Shown here piece after piece: positions 2,136 to 57,205 of a stretch of DNA of 64,000 bases. The first letter of the stretch is position 1. Each line of letters begins with the position of its first letter. The position numbers and the translations under genes were made by a program. This stretch comes from Escherichia coli O157:H7 str. 2011EL-2287 (lineage in GTDB: Bacteria; Pseudomonadota; Gammaproteobacteria; Enterobacterales; Enterobacteriaceae): the NCBI GenBank assembly GCA_000614405.2, contig GCA_000614405.2_3612.1. One strand, 5' to 3'. The notes below the pieces were generated by a model that had not been told where the DNA came from, searched no databases, and was given only the letters and a program-made list of their open reading frames with translations.

Positions 2136-4565
2136 ATGAGCATGTGGTCGTTCGACTTTGAGTCATCCGGTTTGCTGGAAGACCCAGATCTTTATTATCA
2201 CTGCGGCCTGTTTAAAGAGCTGAATAAGAACCGTTTTATGCTGTTCCTTCCTCTAAATGACCGCACACACTACTCCGAGGAGGATATAGAAAAGGCTAAG
2301 AACTTCATTCTGGCAAAGAAAACTCTTTATAAAGATTTTGAAGTTCGCATAGCAGATTTTTCAGAGTTGGAAGGTTGGCTTACAGGAAATTCTGACTGGT
2401 CACCAACAGCTTTGAACTGCCATAACTGCTACAGTTATGACTTTATGCTGATGGAAAGATTATCTGGTATTCATTTTGATATGTTCCGTGATCCTAAATG
2501 TATGGGGACTATCAACGATCACCAGGTTAACCTGTTTGATACGTTGGCGATGAGCCGAATCTTGTGGCCTGATCGCCCTTTACCAAAAGGTTGTCCGGAC
2601 TCTGTATTCAACCCGGTTACTAAGAAAATGCAGCCTGTTGGTCCTCACGGCCTTATGGCATGGGGCTACGCCCTTGGTAACCAGAAAGTTCAAATTGATG
2701 ACTGGCGCGATCTTCCGTTATGGAAGTATGTGGATCGTGTATTTGAGGACGTTATCATCCAGGAGCTGCTCTGGAAAGAGCTGGTAGCGGAATCAAAAGG
2801 TGTATTCTACGGCAAATCTGACATGCAGAACTTTATGTACGATCCTGCCAAAGAGAAGCCGAAAGGGTTCAAGAAGATCACCTGGAAGAACGCATTACGT
2901 CGAGGCATGTTGCAGCACTTCCTGATGGAGCTGCAGGCCCGTCAGGGTGTATACTTCGACATAGATGGAGCTATTGCTTTACGTGACCGTTGCGATGCGT
3001 GGATGAAAGAAATCGCTGATCGTGTTGAACCACAACTGCCTTTAAAAGAGCTGTTAATGTCTCAGCGGCCCAAGTTCCCTGAAAAGCCGTTTAACCAAGA
3101 TGGGACAATCTCTAATAATGGTTGGAAATGGTTAAAAGATAAGCTTGGCTATCCTGTGGACATGAGTGCTTTAGAGTTCAAAGCCCCACCTAAGCGAGCA
3201 TTTACCTCTACAGGAGATGTCAGTAAGATGGGGATAAAATGGTGTGAAGAGATGGGCTGCAAAGACCACGATAAGATGGCTGATTTCTTGAGAGGCTATA
3301 TTAAGGGCACCTCCACACCACAACCTTTACCTAAAGAGCTGATGGATCAGGCAATAAGCGATCTGCAGCAGAAGCGAATGCCTGACTGCAAGATACCTAT
3401 GAAAATCAGCAATCAGGACGATATTAAGCGATACCTGATCAGTGCTGGTTGGCTTCCGACAATGTGGAGAACTAAGGATGTAACTAAAGACAGCAAGAAG
3501 AAAGCTTTACCTGATGCAGATGTTGATGCACGAGTATATGCATATATGGACGAGCTTTTGGAGTCAGAGTATTGTGACCTAATTATCAACTTCTGGAACA
3601 AAACTGATGCTAAGTTCCAGACAACCGTGCACAAGTTCCGAAGCTTTCCTAACTCCGAAAGGATTAAAAAGGAAGTATTCGGGAAAATACGTAGAAAAGC
3701 TAGGGCACTTATTACTTCTCCGCAACTGAAAGATACGTTTGGACACCTGTGTCCGAATCTTGAAAAATTGAACGGAGAGATGGCTAAAGATATCGTCTTA
3801 TGGTTATCATTGCGAAACCGCAGATCGGTCCTTGATCCACTCAAGGAGGATAAGGTTGACACTGGTCTTCTTAATCACCCACGCTTGAAGATTGACCATA
3901 AGCTTCCTGCTAAAAGTTCTGGGCTAACAAACACTTCCAGACAGAAACACAGTATTTGTGCAAACATGCCTAAACCATCTCCTAAAGTGGTTATGGGTAA
4001 AGAGATGCGTAGTCTATGGGGTGTTCCTCCGGGATACTTTGAGATCGGTATTGACGGGTCCAACTTAGAGCAGCTTATCGGAGCTTGGGGTGCCTTTGAG
4101 TTCGACAACGGCTTGTATTATGATGTTGTAAGTAACGGGGACGCACACCAAAACAATGCTGAGGCATATACAAAAGTAGCAGGTAGAGAGGTGTCTCGTA
4201 ACGACGGTAAACCTATCACGTATGGGGTTATGTACGGGGCACAAAAAGATAAAGTTGCAGACATGCTGGATATCTCTCCAGAGTTGGGACAAAGGGTAAT
4301 CGATGCACTCTGGGATGCCAACCCTGGTCTTAAGGGGCGCAAAGAGGATCTGGAGAAATTCTGGGAAGCAACAGGTAAGAAGTTTATCTACTCTTTTGAT
4401 GGTCATGCTATCTGGACCCGATCTAAACACTCTTTACTTAATGCATACCAACAGAATGGTGGTGCATCGCTGTGTGACTTAGTTGGGATACTCATGCACC
4501 ACCAAATGGTGAAGCGTGGGTGGTACGATGAAGGTGTTCGTCGTATTATTTATTACCATAAATAA
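2136..4565 (+). CDS. DNA polymerase, family A, exon 1 (3'-5' exonuclease domain plus polymerase motifs A and B); ORF as read stops 2 codons into an intron, true exon end about 4559
   Basis: Exo I FDFESSG; motif A IGIDGSNLEQL; motif B RNDGKPITYGVMYG; ends ...RRIIYYH exactly at the His of motif C (HDE); SD AAGGAG upstream. Confidence 0.88.
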   Translation: MSMWSFDFESSGLLEDPDLYYHCGLFKELNKNRFMLFLPLNDRTHYSEEDIEKAKNFILAKKTLYKDFEVRIADFSELEGWLTGNSDWSPTALNCHNCYSYDFMLMERLSGIHFDMFRDPKCMGTINDHQVNLFDTLAMSRILWPDRPLPKGCPDSVFNPVTKKMQPVGPHGLMAWGYALGNQKVQIDDWRDLPLWKYVDRVFEDVIIQELLWKELVAESKGVFYGKSDMQNFMYDPAKEKPKGFKKITWKNALRRGMLQHFLMELQARQGVYFDIDGAIALRDRCDAWMKEIADRVEPQLPLKELLMSQRPKFPEKPFNQDGTISNNGWKWLKDKLGYPVDMSALEFKAPPKRAFTSTGDVSKMGIKWCEEMGCKDHDKMADFLRGYIKGTSTPQPLPKELMDQAISDLQQKRMPDCKIPMKISNQDDIKRYLISAGWLPTMWRTKDVTKDSKKKALPDADVDARVYAYMDELLESEYCDLIINFWNKTDAKFQTTVHKFRSFPNSERIKKEVFGKIRRKARALITSPQLKDTFGHLCPNLEKLNGEMAKDIVLWLSLRNRRSVLDPLKEDKVDTGLLNHPRLKIDHKLPAKSSGLTNTSRQKHSICANMPKPSPKVVMGKEMRSLWGVPPGYFEIGIDGSNLEQLIGAWGAFEFDNGLYYDVVSNGDAHQNNAEAYTKVAGREVSRNDGKPITYGVMYGAQKDKVADMLDISPELGQRVIDALWDANPGLKGRKEDLEKFWEATGKKFIYSFDGHAIWTRSKHSLLNAYQQNGGASLCDLVGILMHHQMVKRGWYDEGVRRIIYYHK

Positions 4566-4835
4566 CATTGTGGCTTCATAGAGTAATCTATGTCGAATAA
4601 CCTCTTTAACTGCGGGAAGCCTAAACCTTATGGCAAGGTAATCCGCAACGAAGCGCTCAAAAGAGCGAACGCTCAGAGGCCATTCCGAAAGGAAGTAGAC
4701 CAGCAAGTGCGGTCGAAATGGGAGGATTCCTGTGGTTGCTTATCATAGGAATATGAGATGGTCCGATCCTACGTGAAAACGTATGGCTATGCACGTAATG
4801 GTGCGGGGTAGCTTAACGACCTACCTGAACTATTG
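4560..4835 (+). ncRNA. putative group I self-splicing intron (no homing endonuclease ORF) interrupting the DNA polymerase gene
   Basis: 276-nt gap between pol exons; preceded by U, ends in G; contains AACUGCGGGAAG and AAUCCGCAAC resembling group I P/Q core elements; flanking exons restore YYH-DEY (motif C). Confidence 0.6.
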
Positions 4836-23782: not shown

Positions 23783-24202
23783 ATGAACATTAAATCTAAT
23801 AATCCGGCATATAGCTTTGATAACGCTTTTTGTCACGGTCCGGCGGCGAAAGGATTCGAAATCGATGGTAAACTAATTATTGTCAATGTTGACGGGGAAG
23901 AGGTTGCAGTATATCCGGTGGCAGACGTAAAAAGCCGTTTACAATGCCGCATTGATGTTACCGCCTATCAGCTTGATCCGGTCCGCATAGTTGCCCTGGT
24001 CCTGGAAGAAGAAATTAAAGCCATGCACCATAGCAACAGGTTTATTGGTGACGCTCAGGATAATATGAAGGTGTGCCGCCATAAAGTTAATGAAGTGCTT
24101 AAAGAGTACGGCTATAAAGATCTTATGATCAAACGTGATGAAAAATTCCGGTACCGTAACGACCTGGCAAATCGGATTTTTGAAATATACGAATCATTAT
24201 AA
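23783..24202 (+). CDS. hypothetical protein
   Basis: ORF with SD AAGAGG; upstream TTGACA-N17-TATATT promoter. Confidence 0.55.
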   Translation: MNIKSNNPAYSFDNAFCHGPAAKGFEIDGKLIIVNVDGEEVAVYPVADVKSRLQCRIDVTAYQLDPVRIVALVLEEEIKAMHHSNRFIGDAQDNMKVCRHKVNEVLKEYGYKDLMIKRDEKFRYRNDLANRIFEIYESL

Positions 24203-24220
24203 TTTTTTAACTGAATTATC

Positions 24221-24246
24221 AAGGGGCTTAGGCCCCTTTCTTTTTG
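24221..24246 (+). terminator. rho-independent terminator ending the plus-strand gene array
   Basis: AGGGGC-TTAG-GCCCCT hairpin followed by TTCTTTTTG. Confidence 0.7.
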
Positions 24247-25156
24247 TCTGATCTTCCCCCTACCATAAACGGCCCTACCTGGCAAGTGGAATAATTGACG
24301 AGCCATCAACCCCACACACTGTACAAATATACATGGAAAATAACTATTGCATAATTTTTCATTGTGTGGTAGCAAGTCCATTTTTACCCGTTTTCTCTCC
24401 CAAAAGTGCACGTAATGCCGCTATTGCACAAATTTTAACCTGATGCACATCTCCAATATCTTGTCAACAACTAAAAATCTTTATAAGTCATACACTTACA
24501 CAGCATCGAAAGCGTGTTCTACGCGAAAAATCGAGTATAACTATAGCCGCCAGATCTCAGAATTCACGTACGCACGCCATTCTATAGCCTGCAAAGTATT
24601 TATTCCAACCACAGAATAACGGAATAGTCAATACCTGCATAAAATAATTATTCGTGTAAACTGCATAACATAAATCAGCTCAGGTGTCAACATTTTTCGT
24701 AAACAGTCCGAAATTATCACGATGAGTTATCATAAACAGAGAAATCTTTAGTCGTCTAATGTTTACTGTACATTACTATATTGACTGGAATCATTAGATG
24801 ACTAATAGAAAGATAAGAAATAATTAACAATACAATTATTTTATCTGTAACAATAAGGCAACTATGCAAACGAATGGCATGGCGCGACGGAGTCGCGACA
24901 TAATATAAAAGCAGTAACCATCACCCCCGTGATAGTTTGTCTGCAATCTATTAATCAGATCATAGTTGCCTTGTATTTAGTTAATCATGACATAACAAGC
25001 AAGGCAACTATAGATCTGCTAATAGTTGCCCTGCTTTTATATTATGTCATAGAAACACCCGAAGGGGTGACCAAAGGTCACCTGGCATAGCCAGTGAAAT
25101 ATTGTAAACAAGTTAATTATTGTCATGCAAACGAATGGCATGGCTTATCATCTCTG

Positions 25157-25350
25157 TGTAAACAGTTTGTTTGTAAACAGTTTATACGTGAACAGTTAAC
25201 TATGTAAACTATTGAGAATGTAAACAGTAAAGGAAGTGAATAGTAAGCGAGTGAATATTAATAGCGTGAATAGTGACAGCGTAAACAGTCAGGCATGTCA
25301 ATTAAGTCTAAAGTGTCAAAGGTGTCATATTATGTCACCATTATGTCAGA
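25157..25350. repeat. array of short degenerate tandem direct repeats (GTAAACAGT / GTGAATAGT units, then TGTCA units)
   Basis: About 9 units of GT(A/G)AA(C/T)AGT at 12-17 bp spacing, then about 6 TGTCA repeats; no coding potential. Confidence 0.6.
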
Positions 25351-25609
25351 CAAGTTTTTCTCCTCTTTGTCAAGTGCTGCATGAAAATTTACAATCTGGT
25401 ATGGTAGCATTTTTGCGGCCCTGTTTACATTCAGTTGTGTATGTATAAGCCTTGTTGTGTGGGCGTTTAGACGTCTAGACGGTTGGAAGTCTACAGGTCA
25501 ATATCTAATCTATTGGTTGCTAACTATATCCCACACAAATAGTAAGAAATATAATTGTTATGTGTGTAAACTGTAACTCATGTTATCAATCCCTGTATGG
25601 ATCGCCAGT

Positions 25610-25637
25610 GGTGCGCATAATGGGTATTATGTTAAAT
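25610..25637 (+). other. dif: dif-like XerC/XerD site-specific recombination site
   Basis: GGTGCGCATAA-TGGGTA-TTATGTTAAAT: both 11-bp arms identical to E. coli dif as recalled, 2 differences in the 6-bp central region. Confidence 0.7.
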
Positions 25638-26765
25638 TGCCCGTAATGATAACAGTTCTCACAATGATAGGTATTCTCATTCACCCCACAAGATAGGTTG
25701 CAAATGTTGTGCCACTGTGTGAACGGCCTCACCTATTAATTTGCCTCACTGCCTCGATATTTGAGAATTATTATAAGAATGAGAAGTATTCCCATTCCGT
25801 CCGCCTGGCAGCACTCCTGTCGGTCAGGTCAAAATCGTGGTAGAATTGGGCCTATTCAGATATTTCTGGCTGACTCTTCAGGTCTGTGTGGGAAAAGCCA
25901 ACCTCTCCGGCGGGGCAGGGGGAGGTCAATTAAAAAATTTACGTGGTGTATGAAGCGCTCTTCAGGTAAGGCAGGTATTATGGGATGAAACCCTCTTCAG
26001 GCAATGATATTTGTGGGTGTGATATTTGCTGGAAAGCCAGATATGACGGGACTCCCGGCGGGGCAGGGGTAGTACAGACAGGGAAAATATGGGGATGTAG
26101 TTGGGTGAATTGATCGGGCAGGTAGAGTATGGAATATGTTACAAGTATGTTAAATATGGAGGTTGAATATCTGTAGGATTTGTGTGTAAAATCAAAGACT
26201 TAAGGGGTGTTGTGGTATTTTCTATAAATAATTCAAGTTTAATAGGCAATATTTGTCTCTATCCGCTTTGTGTGGTAAACAGATTCAGATTAGATTGGTT
26301 TACAAGTGTATACATAATATACAAATTAAAGATACAAGAAACCCCCCTCCCCCCTTCGGCTACCATTCACCTTTTCCTCTGACTGGTACTTAAACACTTA
26401 TTCAGACTCTTCAGGTTATCACCCATATATCATATGGCAGTGACTGGTGTCCTCCGGCCCCTCTTTCGTCACCCGTCCGCTTCGCCATGCTAATGCCATA
26501 GCTAATGGTTCGGTTGTTCACCCTGTTCACTCAGGTGTATCTCTATACCCCTTCAAACCGAAGAGAACAGAAAACCCGAATTACTCGGTAAAAGAAAAGA
26601 GAAGAACTTAATTTTATCAGGATAGGCAAGAATGTCAAGGCATGACTGCTCACTAAACAAGCAAACAGTCATGTGTGGGAGGTAAGTGATTGTGGTGGTA
26701 GGAAATTTAGTTGAAAGATGTGTTATAGGTGCTTCCAGCACTTTAGCCGGGCAGCTAATTGTGTG

Positions 26766-35607: not shown

Positions 35608-36069
35608 CTACTTAGACAACAGTTCAAAATAGTGCAAAATTAACAGAAGTTGAATTACGCCTAGCACAACGGCAAGTATGTTAATCTTAGAATCAAAAAA
35701 CTTCTTAACTTTTACCCTAAAAGGCTCCTTGATGTCCTTTACGATCCTATTTATAGATGATTTCATATCCCTGATTACCATCCTAAACATTAGAGACGGA
35801 TCTTCCTTCTCTGTAACAGAATCGAAAACATACTCTCTTCGGTCATAAGGACCTCCAGATCTGCGTATTAACCTCTCCACAGAGACCTCGTACGACACAC
35901 CTGTAACGTAATCATCTATGATAAGTAGTGACGGGTCTTTATCGTCCAAGGGTATTAAAGTTATCTTTCCAGATTTTGTTAAAATTTCTCCTTTTTCAAG
36001 CAAGGTGTACCAATGCTCTCTACCAAGATTGTTGAGGCACGTTTTTACATATTTAACAAACATCGTCAC
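35608..36069 (-). CDS. hypothetical protein
   Basis: ORF. Confidence 0.5.
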   Translation of the reverse strand: MTMFVKYVKTCLNNLGREHWYTLLEKGEILTKSGKITLIPLDDKDPSLLIIDDYVTGVSYEVSVERLIRRSGGPYDRREYVFDSVTEKEDPSLMFRMVIRDMKSSINRIVKDIKEPFRVKVKKFFDSKINILAVVLGVIQLLLILHYFELLSK

Positions 36070-37940: not shown

Positions 37941-38209
37941 ACACTGGGCTCCTTAAATGAATCTATGTAATCAATTAAATCCCAAGCATCCCTATGACCT
38001 GTCAGAGGGTATACTTCTCCAAGAGGGATCATAGCAATAAGTCTATCAAAAACCCAATCTGGACGCAACATTTTATGGTGATACTCCCACTCACCTTCTA
38101 CAGACTTTTTCTGAGTGATCAGGATCTCTGTGTAGTGTTTCGCCTGTCTTGAGTAGATTGAGAATGACTTGTACATAAATGGCCCCCTCTTGTTGAAAAC
38201 AAAATACAC
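37937..38209 (-). CDS. hypothetical protein
   Basis: ORF. Confidence 0.5.
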   Translation of the reverse strand: MYFVFNKRGPFMYKSFSIYSRQAKHYTEILITQKKSVEGEWEYHHKMLRPDWVFDRLIAMIPLGEVYPLTGHRDAWDLIDYIDSFKEPSV

Positions 38210-38211
38210 TA

Positions 38212-38526
38212 CTACCAGGTCACTGTCAAGTAGGCAACCGTGTTATTTTTCTCTGGAGAGATGCCAACAACATCTACCTGTAGACCTCCTGCCCTCAAAT
38301 CCCCAACAATATGCGGGAAGTAATCTGAGAGATGCGAGGGTAGATTTATCGAAAATCCGCATCCCAGAAAGCCTGCTAACGCTTTATTTTGTATCTCCCC
38401 TACAATCGCATCATAAATGGAGTTAAGCTCGTCAGGGAGCGTTACAGGACGTTTTAGCGCTAACTGGTGTAATTTGTCCTTAGCACTCATTTTCATTTCA
38501 GGTCTACCTCTGGTGGTGCCAACCAC
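38212..38526 (-). CDS. hypothetical protein
   Basis: ORF overlapping the end of the upstream methyltransferase gene. Confidence 0.45.
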   Translation of the reverse strand: MVGTTRGRPEMKMSAKDKLHQLALKRPVTLPDELNSIYDAIVGEIQNKALAGFLGCGFSINLPSHLSDYFPHIVGDLRAGGLQVDVVGISPEKNNTVAYLTVTW

Positions 38527-39026
38527 ATAAATGGCGGCAAGCCTAAACGGTTTTTCTTATCCCACACAAAATATGCATATGCTTGCCCGTCAGTTCTGCC
38601 ATTTGATTGAAATGACGGACGCTTAGATATTGTGATCACAGTGGTAGGTGCATTATCAAGCCACCATTCAAATCTGGCTTTGCTTTCCAGAAAATTAAGA
38701 CGTAAAAGCATAATAACTACGTCAGCATCTTTCAACGCCTTGTCTACAAACTCACGAGCCAAGCTGTATGGTGGGTTGGTGATAATACAGTCAACATGGT
38801 TGTATTCTGTATTCAGATAGTCAACACCTTCTTGGATTTCTCCCCATGCAGATCCTAACGGCATACGGGAGTAGAACACACCTGAGGCACTATTCCTGCA
38901 AGGCTCTAAGTAGGTCCAGTCTTCTGGGAACGGAATAAGGTCATACAGCCCTTCTGCACACCACTCCGGTGTCACATACTCATCGTAGGCGTTACGTTGT
39001 TCATCAGGTTTTCTAGCACAAGTCAT
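38493..39026 (-). CDS. DNA methyltransferase (N6-adenine or N4-cytosine class)
   Basis: Catalytic motif IV ITNPPY. Confidence 0.7.
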   Translation of the reverse strand: MTCARKPDEQRNAYDEYVTPEWCAEGLYDLIPFPEDWTYLEPCRNSASGVFYSRMPLGSAWGEIQEGVDYLNTEYNHVDCIITNPPYSLAREFVDKALKDADVVIMLLRLNFLESKARFEWWLDNAPTTVITISKRPSFQSNGRTDGQAYAYFVWDKKNRLGLPPFMWLAPPEVDLK

Positions 39027-39047
39027 GCAAATCTCCAGATCATAAAA

Positions 39048-39067
39048 GCCCTCCGAAGAGGGCTTTA
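39048..39067 (-). terminator. terminator-like hairpin after the ClpP-like gene (minus strand)
   Basis: AAGCCCTC-TTCG-GAGGGCTT followed by TTATGATC on minus strand. Confidence 0.4.
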
Positions 39068-39077
39068 GAATTAATGT

Positions 39078-40127
39078 TTAAACTTCTTCGACAATTCCTG
39101 CACCCAGGATTTTTTCATTGAGCTCTTTTGCTGTTTTAATAATATTATCTACCAGACGCTTGCGAGTCTTATCTTTCACCTTAACCTCTTCACCGCCGTT
39201 CAGAGTAGTCTTCAATTGAGACAGAATATCCTGAAGTTCAACGACAGAGAATCTCTGCAGATCTTCTGAAGTAATCTCACCCAGGGCAATTCGGACGGTC
39301 TCGCCACTTTCCATCTGCAGATTCAGGAACACAGTGTGAACATCACCTTTCGAACCACCCGCTTTTGCAGATTCAACAGCATGAACTAACTCATCTAAAG
39401 ATGTGCACTGGTGAATCTCCGGAAGACCTGCTTCACCTAACACGCCTTCTTCATCACCTTTTGCCAGAAGCTTTTTCGGTTTTTGTCCGTTCTGGATGCG
39501 TTGTATGTTGCCTTCATCCAGAATAATAGCTCCAGTGCGTGCTGCCAGCTCTTCTCCGTCCAACCACACTTCGCCACCAGCTGTGATGGATGCGATCTCA
39601 TCTTCTGTCAGCACCCCACCGTAGTATTTTTCGATTAAGCGTTCGAAACGTTTTTTCCAGTAGCTGACCTGAGTATTCATGTTCACACCGTTACCATAAG
39701 TGCCACCTTGGTAGTAGTGGAACATAAACTCTGTGTCCGGAGCCACAGTGCGTTCTTTGCAACCCAGCCATAAGATTGTTCCCGCAGAGCAGCACATCCC
39801 TTCAGCATGTGCAACAACGCTTGCCTGAGACTCGCGGAATGCCTGCAGATAAGCCATTGCAATGTGCACGCAACCCCCAGGACTATTGATGATCACCCGA
39901 ATGCTTTCTTCCGGCTGAGCCATACGGATCGTCTGCAGACGAGACATATGATCTTGTAAGTCTTCCAAATCGTCGATATAAAGAACGTGGTCAACAACTG
40001 GTGTTGGGTAGCTGTATGTTTCCATAATACCACCCGGCATACCGAACATTTTATTACTCATAGGTTCGAAACCGTTCTGTTTTTCTTTCATGCCGTGTAC
40101 CATGGTGCTACGAGGTGTTAAATTCAT
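39078..40127 (-). CDS. ClpP-family serine protease homolog with about 150-aa C-terminal extension
   Basis: INSPGGCVH motif and ClpP-like Ser (CCSAGT) context; 349 aa. Confidence 0.65.
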   Translation of the reverse strand: MNLTPRSTMVHGMKEKQNGFEPMSNKMFGMPGGIMETYSYPTPVVDHVLYIDDLEDLQDHMSRLQTIRMAQPEESIRVIINSPGGCVHIAMAYLQAFRESQASVVAHAEGMCCSAGTILWLGCKERTVAPDTEFMFHYYQGGTYGNGVNMNTQVSYWKKRFERLIEKYYGGVLTEDEIASITAGGEVWLDGEELAARTGAIILDEGNIQRIQNGQKPKKLLAKGDEEGVLGEAGLPEIHQCTSLDELVHAVESAKAGGSKGDVHTVFLNLQMESGETVRIALGEITSEDLQRFSVVELQDILSQLKTTLNGGEEVKVKDKTRKRLVDNIIKTAKELNEKILGAGIVEEV

Positions 40128-40187
40128 GAGAAATCCTTAATATTGGAAGTTGAAAGCTATTTATTTAAACCTGATTCACATTTACCT

Positions 40188-40499
40188 TTATTTAGCAATC
40201 ACTATAGAGTACTTACGATTGTCAGAAGCATCGCAGCTCAATGATTGCCAGTCTACCACATACCACGTATCATTGTCAACAATCACTTTATCGCCTGTTC
40301 TGTAGCAGGTGCTGCTTTCAATAATCCGAGACTCGATAAAGAATCTGTGTCGGCGCTCACGTAGCAACGCTAAGTTGATTATATTGCCACCACTGTCCTT
40401 GATCCATACATTCTTGGATCCTTTATATGCCAGAATTGTCTCGCCGTTATAGACAAACAGGCAGTATATTTTATTTAGTTTCTCTTGTATTGTGGCCAT
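40188..40499 (-). CDS. hypothetical protein
   Basis: ORF. Confidence 0.5.
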   Translation of the reverse strand: MATIQEKLNKIYCLFVYNGETILAYKGSKNVWIKDSGGNIINLALLRERRHRFFIESRIIESSTCYRTGDKVIVDNDTWYVVDWQSLSCDASDNRKYSIVIAK

Positions 40500-40602
40500 A
40501 CTATCTCCTTCTCCTTGTCTTGTCCGATAATAATATCTAAAGCTTACCTGTTTGTCAACAACTGTTTTAGATATTTAAGGGTGGAATAACCACCCTTCTG
40601 TA

Positions 40603-41391
40603 TTACTCGGAAACAGGGGTCCAAATATGATTTGCACGATCCTCTATAAGATTGAGAGCAATCTGACGACCCAACCCGGAACGAACGACATCGTCTGGAC
40701 TATCAAAGCTGATCATTCCAACCTCGGGATCTGGATGACGAGTAAAGAAATCCGTCACCCATGCAAGGCCAGATTTACCAGGGATGTCACGTTGACTATT
40801 ATCGCCCATAATTACAAGGGTGGCCTGATCAGAGATCCTTGTAATAATTGACAACATTTCTTCAGGGTTAGTTTGCTGTGCCTCGTCAATCAGGACAAAG
40901 CATCGCTCATCGAAACTACGACCACGAATGCTTTCAACTTCACAAATCTCGATACGGCTGTTCTGACCATCTCCCAGCATTGCGGCAAAAGCACCTTTGC
41001 CAACACGACGACAAATAGTGTCCATCATGCTTCGAAGATAGGGCCACAGTTTTTGCATTGCATTCCCTGGTTTAAATCCTGAAGTCTTTCCTGTCTGAAC
41101 GTAAGGACGTGCAACAATGATCTTATCAATCTCGTTCTTACGCAGAAGATCACCTGCATATGCAGATGCCATGAATGTCTTACCGGATCCAAACACACCG
41201 TTTACAATAATAATCTTACGTGACCCTAGATAATCAAGATACTTTTGCTGCTTCTTATTCATTGGTCGGAGAGCTGGAGCAGTGTGCTCTCTTTCGTCAG
41301 CAAATTTCTCAGCAGCCTTACGCAGGCGATCAGATTTGCGAGCCTCTCTAGCTTCATCACGCATGCGTTTTGTTTCTTTAGCTCGACCCAT
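40603..41391 (-). CDS. phoH: PhoH-like ATPase
   Basis: Walker A GVFGSGKTFMA; Walker B-like VLIDEAQ; 262 aa. Confidence 0.75.
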   Translation of the reverse strand: MGRAKETKRMRDEAREARKSDRLRKAAEKFADEREHTAPALRPMNKKQQKYLDYLGSRKIIIVNGVFGSGKTFMASAYAGDLLRKNEIDKIIVARPYVQTGKTSGFKPGNAMQKLWPYLRSMMDTICRRVGKGAFAAMLGDGQNSRIEICEVESIRGRSFDERCFVLIDEAQQTNPEEMLSIITRISDQATLVIMGDNSQRDIPGKSGLAWVTDFFTRHPDPEVGMISFDSPDDVVRSGLGRQIALNLIEDRANHIWTPVSE

Positions 41392-41429
41392 GTTGGGACT
41401 CCTTTCAGATTGAGATGTGCCAAGTACTT

Positions 41430-41780
41430 TTACTGCAACAGTTTTTCAATAGCCGCTTCCATGCTGCTTGCAACAGCCTGAACTCGGATATTCATCTCTT
41501 CTTGGTGGATCAGCTCCTTAAGCTCTTTAATGGTAAATTCTTTAGAGAAACCTTCCACCATAATCTTGTGTAAGGCTTCTTGCGTGTCTACTTGCAAGAA
41601 CTTTTCCAGTTTGTTGGCAGAGGCTTCTAAATCAGCCCGAATGCGAGGGTCATCTGTGCGATTCAGCATTAGGCGTAAGCCATCAAGATTAGTAGAAATA
41701 GCGTCTGCATGTTGAGTAACTAACCGTGGCAAAATGAGATCTACAAACTTATTAGCCAAATCGATACGTTCTTGTGTCAC
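41430..41780 (-). CDS. hypothetical protein
   Basis: ORF. Confidence 0.5.
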   Translation of the reverse strand: MTQERIDLANKFVDLILPRLVTQHADAISTNLDGLRLMLNRTDDPRIRADLEASANKLEKFLQVDTQEALHKIMVEGFSKEFTIKELKELIHQEEMNIRVQAVASSMEAAIEKLLQ

Positions 41781-41954
41781 TGTTGCACCCCCTCTTCATC
41801 CTCATGATGTTTCTTTTCACGCTTGTGTTTTTTCTTGAGCTCAAGCGCAATTTCTTTTTTGTACGCCTTCTTCAAGGCTTTTTTAGCCATTTGGCACCTC
41901 CTCTGCTTTCATTTTACGATAATTATACCTATCTAAACAAAGCTTTGTCAACAG

Positions 41955-42428
41955 CTAGTCTACCTGGACCCAACCGCCTGATACTTTTTTAAACATTCTT
42001 TGGTTATCACTGCCTCGGAACGGTTTCTTGGTTGGTAAATCTTTTACATACTTACCGTCAATGATGATATCAGCCAGTTTAAGAACATCACTAGAGATAT
42101 GGTCAAATGTGAACCCAGTATATACAAGAATAGTTTTCTTGTCACCAAATTTTTCCTTAATTTTCTCCATCAGGCTAATAATATCTGGCTCATTATAGTA
42201 TGCTAAGGGTTCTCCACCCAGCAGAGAGATACCGCACACAGACGGGTTATCTAAATCTGACAAGATTTTTTGCAAGTCTTCTTCAGTAAACTCTCTTCCC
42301 TTATCTTTTGACCAAAATGCCTGATTAAAGCAACCAGGGCAAGCGTGTGGGCACCCAGATACCCACAAGGCAGTTCTAATACCTGGCCCTTCGGTGTAAG
42401 ATATTTCTGTGTATCCGGCAATATTCAT
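41955..42428 (-). CDS. nrdG: anaerobic ribonucleotide reductase activating protein (radical SAM)
   Basis: CPHACPGC radical-SAM cysteine motif; 157 aa; adjacent to nrdD. Confidence 0.8.
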   Translation of the reverse strand: MNIAGYTEISYTEGPGIRTALWVSGCPHACPGCFNQAFWSKDKGREFTEEDLQKILSDLDNPSVCGISLLGGEPLAYYNEPDIISLMEKIKEKFGDKKTILVYTGFTFDHISSDVLKLADIIIDGKYVKDLPTKKPFRGSDNQRMFKKVSGGWVQVD

Positions 42429-55737: not shown

Positions 55738-56069
55738 GCTTCCTCATCCTCCTCTCCTTCATCAGGAGCATAAGCCTTATCTTTGAACAGGACGAGAGAG
55801 CAAAGCTTAACATCTGTTTCCACACTGGTGAACATGCATAACCGCTCTCCCTCAATCAGCTCACAATCCTCTTTTAAAACAGCAGACCATACACGGTCAT
55901 CTGCGTAATCATCCGTGTACAGGATATATGAAATGGTGTCATCTTCATACAACCGCCACATACCTGTGGCAACAATAAATGTATTTTTTGTTTTAATGGT
56001 CCCTGTTGTATGATCATCCTCAAAAACAGCTTCCATAATTGCATTATCTACAGAATTTTTAGTCATCAA
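55734..56069 (-). CDS. hypothetical protein
   Basis: ORF. Confidence 0.5.
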   Translation of the reverse strand: MMTKNSVDNAIMEAVFEDDHTTGTIKTKNTFIVATGMWRLYEDDTISYILYTDDYADDRVWSAVLKEDCELIEGERLCMFTSVETDVKLCSLVLFKDKAYAPDEGEEDEEA

Positions 56070-57205
56070 ATTGCTCCAACATTTCTAAGAACGTTAACAA
56101 GTTTTGTTTGATCATTGAATGTTCGCTTCATATACAAACAGTCAAAAATTATACTCATCCATTGACCTACGGAGATTCTACGATCAATACCATTGAAGTC
56201 AGTATACTTAACAACACCTTTCGGGAACCACTTCTTGTACTGATCAATAATAGCCACCCACATCTCCTTTGGAGTGCTGCACTGAGACAGTAGGTAGAAT
56301 GCTGAGGCATCTCCGAACTTACCCTTACCGATAAGTCCTTGATACGGCTTGATGTTGTCAGCAGAGTCACCACACAGCATTTGGTATCCGAAGAACAGCA
56401 TTCCGTAACCACCAACCTCTCCATTAGGCTTCATGAAGATGTTCCCCATACCGTTATCGATCAGCATAGGGGTTTCCCTTACAAAATCTCCCTTATCGTT
56501 TCGCATGGGATCGAACACAAGCCCCGGTAGTGTTCTTTGGTCCTTATCAATAGAGATAATAAACTTGTTGAACTTACCTGTTTTTTGGTAGTGGTTCCAA
56601 CCTTCAAATTGCTGGATAGCTAACCAGTCATCAGCCTCGATACCGTTGATCACTTGAGCATTATACTGCTTTTGGAGATACTGTCTTGCATCTCCAAGCA
56701 GCAGTGGTCGAAGAGTATTGTTACGGTTGGCTTTGTATCTTTCCGGCATTGGAAGATCTAGTCTGAAGTTACCTGTGCCTCCCAACACCCCGACACATCG
56801 CTCTTCCGGAATACCAAGATAGTTAAGAACTGCATTTGCCTTACATTTTATTGTGTGCAAGCAGTTCTCTACAGGGTCAGGTGTTTGGATATCCAAGACA
56901 TCAAAATCTTCACGTGTCCACGGAATAAACTCCTTACCAGACTTTTTACATGCGGCTTCACGGTTGGTATTCTCAGCTTTTAGCCAACCACCAACGGTGT
57001 TCTTCTGCCGCCCCCAGAACTCTGTTCGTGTTTTAAACATCTTCTTACGTCCGGAGGCTTTGTGTGTTACCTCAATTGTCCTTTTTTCACAACTTGCTGC
57101 AGCTTGATATGCAACCTGATCGAAGTCATAATAAACTATAGCGTCAGGTTCAAGAAGATCAGCCAGACAATCTATGGACTCAATAAGTGGATATTCTCTA
57201 CTCAA
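56066..57205 (-). CDS. 5'-3' exonuclease / flap endonuclease (T4 RNase H / T5 D15 family)
   Basis: GIEADDWLA and LCGDSADNI motifs typical of FEN-family nucleases. Confidence 0.75.
   Translation of the reverse strand: MSREYPLIESIDCLADLLEPDAIVYYDFDQVAYQAAASCEKRTIEVTHKASGRKKMFKTRTEFWGRQKNTVGGWLKAENTNREAACKKSGKEFIPWTREDFDVLDIQTPDPVENCLHTIKCKANAVLNYLGIPEERCVGVLGGTGNFRLDLPMPERYKANRNNTLRPLLLGDARQYLQKQYNAQVINGIEADDWLAIQQFEGWNHYQKTGKFNKFIISIDKDQRTLPGLVFDPMRNDKGDFVRETPMLIDNGMGNIFMKPNGEVGGYGMLFFGYQMLCGDSADNIKPYQGLIGKGKFGDASAFYLLSQCSTPKEMWVAIIDQYKKWFPKGVVKYTDFNGIDRRISVGQWMSIIFDCLYMKRTFNDQTKLVNVLRNVGAI

Follow-up and report, generated by a model that had tools for sequence, protein, structure and literature searches.

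Large lytic phages commonly carry ClpP-like genes that lie outside the head module, and such genes are routinely named 'ATP-dependent protease' or 'head maturation protease' without evidence. The closest described systems are cellular ClpP (MEROPS S14; PDB 1TYF), the ClpP-related or S49-type head proteases (NF045542; lambda gpC/Nu3; Felix O1 gp56), which have a ClpP-clan fold and often a non-protease C-terminal region, and the XkdF/S78_2 proteases (rV5 gp063, ICP1 gp125), which are also serine peptidases but are unrelated in fold and family. Felix O1, a relative of phage rV5 in its head genes, uses a ClpP-related/S49-type head protease (PMC3185647). A comparison of jumbo phages proposes XkdF peptidases as head-processing enzymes and describes phage ClpP as patchily distributed, as expected of host-directed peptidases; a host-directed reading similar to the one favoured below for gp117 of rV5 was already put forward there for jumbo-phage ClpP proteases (PMC7824862).

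The clade mates of gp117 (PHROG 1827 / 5410) include ICP1 gp211, KVP40-type ClpP, Pakpunavirus ORF46, Barbavirus gp081 and CR9 gp221. All have in common with it the protease core, the Ser and His residues, a polar 'pocket' and a nucleotide-metabolism or replication setting, often 3′ of PhoH. Differences are found at the C-terminus: unlike gp117, the homologues of Pakpunavirus (182 aa) and of a T5-like phage (203 aa) have no extension and those of Barba and of a T4-like phage have short tails, while the long extension of the ICP1 homologue is unrelated to that of gp117 and the extension of the CR9 homologue is distantly related to it. A literature search turned up no work on the function of any ClpP-like phage protein from this clade.

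The window analysed here, a stretch of 64,000 nucleotides, is 99.2% identical to Escherichia phage rV5 (Vequintavirus; DQ832317 / NC_011041) and corresponds to the reverse complement of positions 66765-130764 of the rV5 record. It carries the complete ClpP-like gene, running from ATG to stop on the minus strand in the list of open reading frames (an orientation not given in the first-pass annotation); an AAGGA ribosome-binding site precedes its start codon by 7 nt. The gene and the segments of its product are:

39078..40127, minus strand: gp117 (ORF122), complete CDS, 349 aa plus stop, ClpP-fold serine peptidase with C-terminal extension
39996..40127, minus strand: N-terminal segment, aa 1-44, predicted disordered (pLDDT <50 for aa 1-43)
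39483..39995, minus strand: ClpP-fold core, aa 45-215 (PF00574; AlphaFold2 block with pLDDT mostly 82-93)
39399..39482, minus strand: charged flexible linker, aa 216-243 (pLDDT <50 for aa 222-240)
39102..39398, minus strand: orphan C-terminal alpha/beta domain, aa 244-342 (stand-alone AlphaFold2 pLDDT 78.7)

The open reading frame is 100% identical to the rv5_gp117 product in DQ832317, labelled 'ClpP ATP-dependent protease subunit' or 'ATP-dependent protease' in databases, so that gp117 is a gene already deposited and labelled and a member of a catalogued family. PHROG 5410 ('ATP-dependent protease') covers aa 24-345, equivalent to profile positions 4-322 of 323 (E 4.9e-155), and PHROG 1827 matches the core (aa 52-200, E 2.6e-40). 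Because the match to PHROG 5410 is full length, the long architecture, judged by profile, is itself that of an already catalogued phage family. Among 5.8 billion proteins searched, 39 homologue clusters of the same architecture (304-355 aa) were recovered, all from rV5-like or Vequintavirinae-type contigs. In the rV5 genome paper gp117 appears only in the annotation table, undiscussed, and no protease is mentioned (PMC3606486).

Domain boundaries are those of an AlphaFold2 monomer model built on a 29-sequence family alignment. The N-terminal segment, which has family-conserved F28, G29, Y40 and P41, stands in place of the axial-loop/helix-A region of ClpP. The core contains the handle helix and Gly-rich strand as well as the ClpP signatures noted in the first-pass annotation, IINSPGG at aa 79-85 and CCSAGT at aa 112-117. 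Beyond the linker, which differs in length and sequence between homologues, the C-terminal domain folds separately from the core; modelled alone, its ~100 aa form a helix, a beta-hairpin and then two more helices, and this helical domain carries a basic loop. The first-pass annotation had described an extra C-terminal domain of about 150 aa with no assigned function; the extension is real, at ~135 aa rather than ~150, and the description of a ClpP-like protease with an uncharacterised C-terminal domain holds within the reach of computation.

Conservation of the C-terminal domain is modest (37% mean column identity), with F293, E297 and R322 invariant. Comparison with PDB by Foldseek gave no fold match better than E 1.3, the sole significant match in BFVD by the same method was a gp117 family member, and a profile of the domain found five matches among 1.84 billion representative proteins, all from the gp117 family or fragments of it. 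Homology to the ICP1 extension was rejected (hhalign probability 0.4%), and a relationship to the C-terminus of the Certrevirus CR9 homologue is weak but plausible (hhalign probability 76%). By these searches and models, the domain appears to be without sequence or fold relatives outside the gp117 phage subfamily.

Pfam CLP_protease (PF00574) matches aa 59-168 (E 2.1e-12; 47.7 bits vs a gathering score of 20.2), and the best PDB sequence matches of gp117 are all ClpP (E about 1e-7). Scores against models of cellular ClpP are below cut-off for TIGR00493 (33.2 bits; cut-off 308.6), PRK00277 (38.2 bits; 249) and PRK12553 (39.2 bits; 228), and far under cut-off for all PRK ClpP models. NF045542 ('head maturation protease, ClpP-related') gives 60.4 bits, also below its cut-off of 120, and the head-protease PHROGs 1684, 94, 2976 and 133 match at E 1e-14 to 1e-22 (PHROG 1684, E 8.7e-22), far more weakly than PHROG 5410 or PHROG 1827. 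Scanned against Pfam at E up to 1, gp117 gave no match to Peptidase_S49; NfeD1b_N and SDH_protease matched weakly, both under cut-off. Classification, posed in the first-pass annotation as S14 ClpP versus S49 or prohead protease, comes out with the S14-type Pfam family matched, S49 absent and the NCBIfam cut-offs for ClpP and head protease missed. By profile score gp117 is slightly closer to the ClpP-related head proteases of phages than to ClpP of cells; missing the NCBIfam cut-offs for both, it is a standard member of neither group.

Compared with cellular ClpP, gp117 (about 21% identity) is alike in fold, Ser and His positions, INSPGG motif, handle helix and Gly-rich strand. Residues were mapped on what we take to be the E. 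coli ClpP reference sequence and numbering (UniProt P0A6G7, published structures), with the following catalytic positions:

39786-39788, minus strand: codon of Ser114
39717-39719, minus strand: codon of His137
39570-39572, minus strand: codon of Glu186, at the position of ClpP Asp171

Ser114 and His137 align to the catalytic Ser97 and His122 of E. coli ClpP and are invariant in the gp117 family and in distant phage homologues, and the oxyanion Gly85 and surrounding motifs are invariant across large evolutionary distances. As to the third member of the Ser-His-Asp triad, the Asp171 position is occupied by Glu186 in rV5, by Gln in most family members and by D, E or Q in distant phage homologues. 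With Gln as the third triad residue, activity might be lowered or altered in most relatives.

The surroundings of gp117 in the window bear on when it is made:

40603..41391, minus strand: PhoH-like ATPase gp115 (Pfam PhoH, E 3.6e-47)
40530..40558, minus strand: near-consensus sigma-70 promoter, TTGACA-17-TATTAT, 11/12 consensus matches in the scan
40188..40499, minus strand: orf121 (gp116), 103 aa, PHROG 5456, between the promoter and gp117
35608-36063: gp128 (ORF133), PHROG 7821, 3 kb downstream of gp117 in the same transcription unit

The sigma-70 promoter is listed as P121 in the supplement of the rV5 paper (PMC3606486). From its position it probably drives orf121 and gp117, the former presumably co-transcribed with the latter. 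gp117 lies inside the rV5 transcription unit of genes 82-163, with genes 27-66 being the late genes. The rV5 late-promoter motif TGGTAAAATA, allowing ≤1 mismatch, was not found within several kb of gp117 on the coding strand, and a late promoter upstream of gp117 was rejected as a candidate. No rV5 transcriptome was found. ICP1 has both the head and the nucleotide-metabolism modules in common with rV5, and RNA-seq of ICP1 classes gp122 (Phage_cap_E), gp123 (decoration), gp125 (Peptidase_S78_2) and gp128 (TerL) as 'Late' and gp211 ('ClpP ATP-dependent protease subunit'), nrdA/B and PhoH gp208 as 'Middle-late' (PMC7567579 Table S1). Expression timing, read here via ICP1 orthologues only, is 'Middle-late' for the ClpP-like gene vs 'Late' for the capsid genes.

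PhoH is immediately upstream of the ClpP-like gene in rV5, CR9, ICP1, Barba19A and V22, the order being PhoH, ClpP-like, methyltransferase in Barbavirus and RNR, Grx, PhoH, ClpP-like, methyltransferase in Certrevirus. Among 59 IMG/VR PhoH loci, 15 have a ClpP-like ORF within 10 kb, and 10 of the 59 have a strong one on the same strand as PhoH, 0-3.4 kb downstream of it; a locus search with a single PhoH query returned near-identical phages only. Only related myovirus lineages show the linkage; T4-like, T5-like and Pakpunavirus phages lack it, and there the homologous core is found between DHFR and DNA repair genes (T4-like vibriophage), next to a dNMP kinase (T5-like Sugarlandvirus) or with ligase and dCMP deaminase (Pakpunavirus). 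rV5 PhoH profiles as an SF1-helicase-like P-loop ATPase, not as an AAA+ unfoldase. PhoH as unfoldase partner of gp117 was rejected, since the linkage is lineage-bound and PhoH helicase-like, and the PhoH-ClpP-like neighbourhood is treated as probable inherited synteny and not as evidence of a complex.

The first-pass annotation had found no capsid genes in the window, which is essentially right: the portal, protease, scaffold candidate, decoration and major capsid genes of rV5 are at 53.4-57.9 kb of its record, and the window covers 66765-130764. The head module (53.4-60.9 kb) is outside the window and 35 kb from gp117 (90.6 kb), in the order TerL gp065, gp064, gp063, gp062, decoration gp061 and major capsid gp060. 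By profile search gp064 is a Mu-type portal (Portal_Mu) and gp060 a Phage_cap_E capsid protein, while gp063, between the portal and major capsid genes, is a Peptidase_S78_2 (XkdF) protein (E 1.1e-17). Its RefSeq name, 'DNA methyltransferase', is a mis-annotation; its homologue is a 'capsid protease' in the annotation of ICP1 and a 'prohead protease' in that of BASEL phage EmilHeitz. On its family and position, gp063 is the likely capsid-maturation enzyme in place of gp117.

The alternative that survives best, improbable as it is, makes gp117 an accessory second head-maturation protease or a protease-scaffold-like fusion (cf. lambda gpC/Nu3), its C-terminal helix-loop-helix directing it to the inside of procapsids for digestion of the scaffold or of internal proteins. 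The best NCBIfam match and several PHROG matches of gp117 are indeed to ClpP-related head maturation proteases. Protease, linker and helical C-terminal domain is the usual layout of prohead protease-scaffold fusions, and the resemblance of gp117 to it, with a flexible linker and a basic loop in the C-terminal domain, counts against a non-head reading, as does the 'Middle-late' peak of the ICP1 orthologue, which overlaps the time when heads begin assembly. Prohead proteases often leave the capsid, so the absence of gp117 from the reported rV5 virion proteins is weak evidence, and position alone does not exclude a virion role because the gene of ORF133, a protein abundant in mass spectra of rV5 virions, lies just 3 kb away in the same unit.

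Against an accessory head role stand the NF045542 score, half of the cut-off, the 35 kb that separate gp117 from the head module, its separate sigma-70 transcription unit outside the late unit, and the dedicated S78_2 protease with which it coexists and which already holds the canonical slot. ICP1 likewise has its own prohead protease (gp125), and T4-like phages and T5 are established to have theirs in gp21 and pb11. Neither by fold nor by sequence does the C-terminal domain match a scaffold or capsid protein, and it is absent or different in the ICP1, Barba, Pakpunavirus, T4-like and T5-like homologues. In none of the relatives examined is gp117 located beside a capsid gene, the arrangement that, with an extension known as a scaffold domain, would have spoken for a head protease. 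Very probably, gp117 is not a capsid-maturation enzyme.

Taken at its annotation, gp117 would be a true proteolytic subunit of an ATP-dependent Clp protease, assembling into rings that bind the ClpX/ClpA of the host, or mixing with the host's ClpP, and so redirecting host proteolysis. The above-threshold Pfam match, ClpP as the nearest solved structures, the handle helix and Gly-rich strand of the model and the conserved Ser and His all fit this role. The NCBIfam scores do not (TIGR00493, 33 bits vs 308.6, with the PRK ClpP models far under cut-off), nor does the absence of any counterpart in gp117 to E. coli ClpP residues 1-8, the N-terminal axial/gating loop. The docking pocket was compared by a gap-free mapping anchored on the INSPGG, catalytic Ser and catalytic His motifs, using E. 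coli residues that we take, from ClpP-ADEP and ClpXP structures, to dock the IGF/IGL loops of ClpX/ClpA:

E. coli ClpP Y60: rV5 gp117 R77
E. coli ClpP Y62: rV5 gp117 I79
E. coli ClpP F82: rV5 gp117 E99
E. coli ClpP I90: rV5 gp117 H107
E. coli ClpP M92: rV5 gp117 E109
E. coli ClpP F112: rV5 gp117 T127
E. coli ClpP L114: rV5 gp117 A129

R77, E99, H107, E109 and T127 are invariant in the gp117 family; I or V occupies position 79, and A or S position 129. Across the wider phage clade, pocket positions are predominantly polar or charged. The replacement of Y60/F82/I90/M92/F112/L114 by R/E/H/E/T/A, the missing axial loop, the change of Asp171 to Glu or Gln and the additional ~135 aa at the C-terminus set gp117 apart from cellular ClpP; judging from the ClpP structure, the appendage would emerge on the apical, ATPase-docking face. 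Profiles identified no ClpX/ClpA-like ATPase among the rV5 ATPases tested (gp004, gp005, gp077 and PhoH), and a phage-encoded Clp ATPase was rejected as a candidate, gp004, gp005 and gp077 matching only generic P-loop/kinase-like profiles at sub-threshold scores. A role as Clp subunit is accordingly hard to credit, and operation of gp117 with host Clp ATPases is probably not the case. The 'ATP-dependent' label is doubtful and would seem to derive from fold similarity alone, because docking and gating features, NCBIfam scores above cut-off and a ClpX/ClpA-like partner among the rV5 ATPases tested are all absent.

The reading that we favour, at a probability of roughly 0.5, is that gp117 is an active mid-infection ClpP-fold peptidase of the cytoplasm, neither a prohead protease nor dependent on ClpX/ClpA, whose C-terminal domain selects targets or partners or covers the apical face. 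It would be a catalytically competent ClpP-fold serine peptidase, made mid-infection together with nucleotide-metabolism genes and acting in the infected cytoplasm on host proteins or phage early proteins, with capsid maturation left to gp063, the XkdF/S78_2 protease. As gp117 lacks the N-terminal gate of true ClpP and its hydrophobic pockets for docking, it would probably function without the host unfoldases ClpX and ClpA. The tethered C-terminal domain, present in rV5-like phages only, would most simply be a module of this lineage for choosing substrates or partners, or a cover of the apical face. The fold, the conserved Ser and His, the missing docking features, the position and promoter of the gene, a second protease in the head module and the expression class of the ICP1 orthologues are observed here; that gp117 assembles into rings, acts independently of the ATPases and meets its target in the cytoplasm is inferred, as is what the C-terminal domain does.

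The non-morphogenetic role raised in the first-pass annotation, from the position of the gene among nucleotide-metabolism genes, gains circumstantial support from gp063 in the head slot, from the sigma-70 unit and from the 'Middle-late' class of the ICP1 orthologue, as well as from related cores in replication and nucleotide-metabolism modules of T4-like and T5-like phages. An elaboration of the favoured reading, unlikely in this full form, is a self-contained, unfoldase-independent ClpP-like machine in which the orphan C-terminal domain, tethered above a remodelled polar apical face, replaces the AAA+ partner or adaptor and delivers specific host proteins for degradation; these could be defence, takeover or nucleotide-pool regulators, and the PhoH-like ATPase, so often encoded just ahead, might cooperate functionally with gp117. 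A reading of gp117 as chiefly a non-catalytic decoy or binding protein (for example a poison subunit, an inhibitor of host ClpP/Lon pathways or a structural ring with the fold as scaffold) fits the change of the triad Asp to Gln in most family members and the invariant surface residues at the former docking pocket, which suggest a conserved protein-protein interface, but is very unlikely given the invariance of Ser114, His137, Gly85 and their motifs, the pattern expected of purifying selection on catalysis.

What this analysis provides is a sound refinement of annotation and not a discovery. New here are gp063 as candidate capsid protease, docking and gating features of ClpP that have been lost, a third triad residue that is not conserved and a C-terminal domain that is an orphan. 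Phage records matching gp117 at E no worse than 1e-5 number 946, a total that includes head-module ClpP-like maturation proteases, and model and therapeutic phages are among the carriers of gp117-like proteases. For rV5 and its relatives, the 'ATP-dependent' and head-protease labels are probably both wrong. The targets of gp117, if found, would reveal a proteolytic host-takeover step in rV5-like phages, ICP1 and Pakpunavirus.

The gene for the PhoH-like ATPase gp115 lies upstream of that for the ClpP-like protease gp117 in the nucleotide-metabolism transcription unit of rV5, and this arrangement was compared with the corresponding loci of other phages.

38493-41391, minus strand: PhoH to ClpP-like gene order

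In rV5, Cronobacter phage CR9 and Rheinheimera phage Barba19A, phoH is followed by 0-3 small ORFs, the ClpP-like gene and often a small DNA methyltransferase gene; the PhoH/ClpP-like order is kept in part in ICP1 and Alteromonas phage V22. IMG/VR yielded 10 PhoH loci in which a strong same-strand ClpP-like ORF lies 0-3.4 kb downstream of phoH. A search with window positions 38000-42000 also identified 19 GenBank 'Campylobacter phage' records (MG0656xx), 97-98% identical to rV5 over this region, lacking annotation and with C. jejuni as the stated host, which seem to be mislabelled or co-isolated E. coli Vequintaviruses.

A second protease, gp063, is encoded in the head module, outside the window.

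rV5 record 55883-56455: gp063, Peptidase_S78_2/XkdF

Flanked by portal and capsid genes, gp063 is likely the prohead protease of rV5. Its RefSeq name, 'DNA methyltransferase' (PHROG 1530 is labelled likewise), is a mis-annotation, and the same wrong label has spread to several relatives (e.g. Nernie, ZCKP1 and ETEC-TG).

One virion protein is encoded in the same non-late nucleotide-metabolism unit as gp117, distant from the structural genes despite its presence in the particle.

35608-36063, minus strand: gp128 (ORF133), PHROG 7821 'virion structural protein'

This 151-aa protein, with a hydrophobic C-terminal helix, ranked among the predominant proteins when rV5 virions were analysed by mass spectrometry (rV5 paper, PMC3606486).

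Two further features were noted elsewhere in the window.

about 24147-26752 (rV5 record 104013-106618): stretch of ~2.6 kb without annotated CDS
4550-4785, plus strand: group I catalytic intron (Rfam RF00028, 64.7 bits, E 4e-14)

Two transcription units converge at the CDS-free stretch, where all ORFs are <100 aa and within which the G+C minimum of the window is found (0.386, in 24001-26000); a replication origin, terminators or non-coding RNAs could lie here. The intron (about 125980-126215 in the rV5 record) matches the Rfam model over its full length and lies among the small ORFs gp218/gp219; gp223 and gp220, which are pieces of the DNA polymerase, come just upstream. Absent from the annotation of the record, it probably splits the T7-like DNA polymerase gene of rV5.
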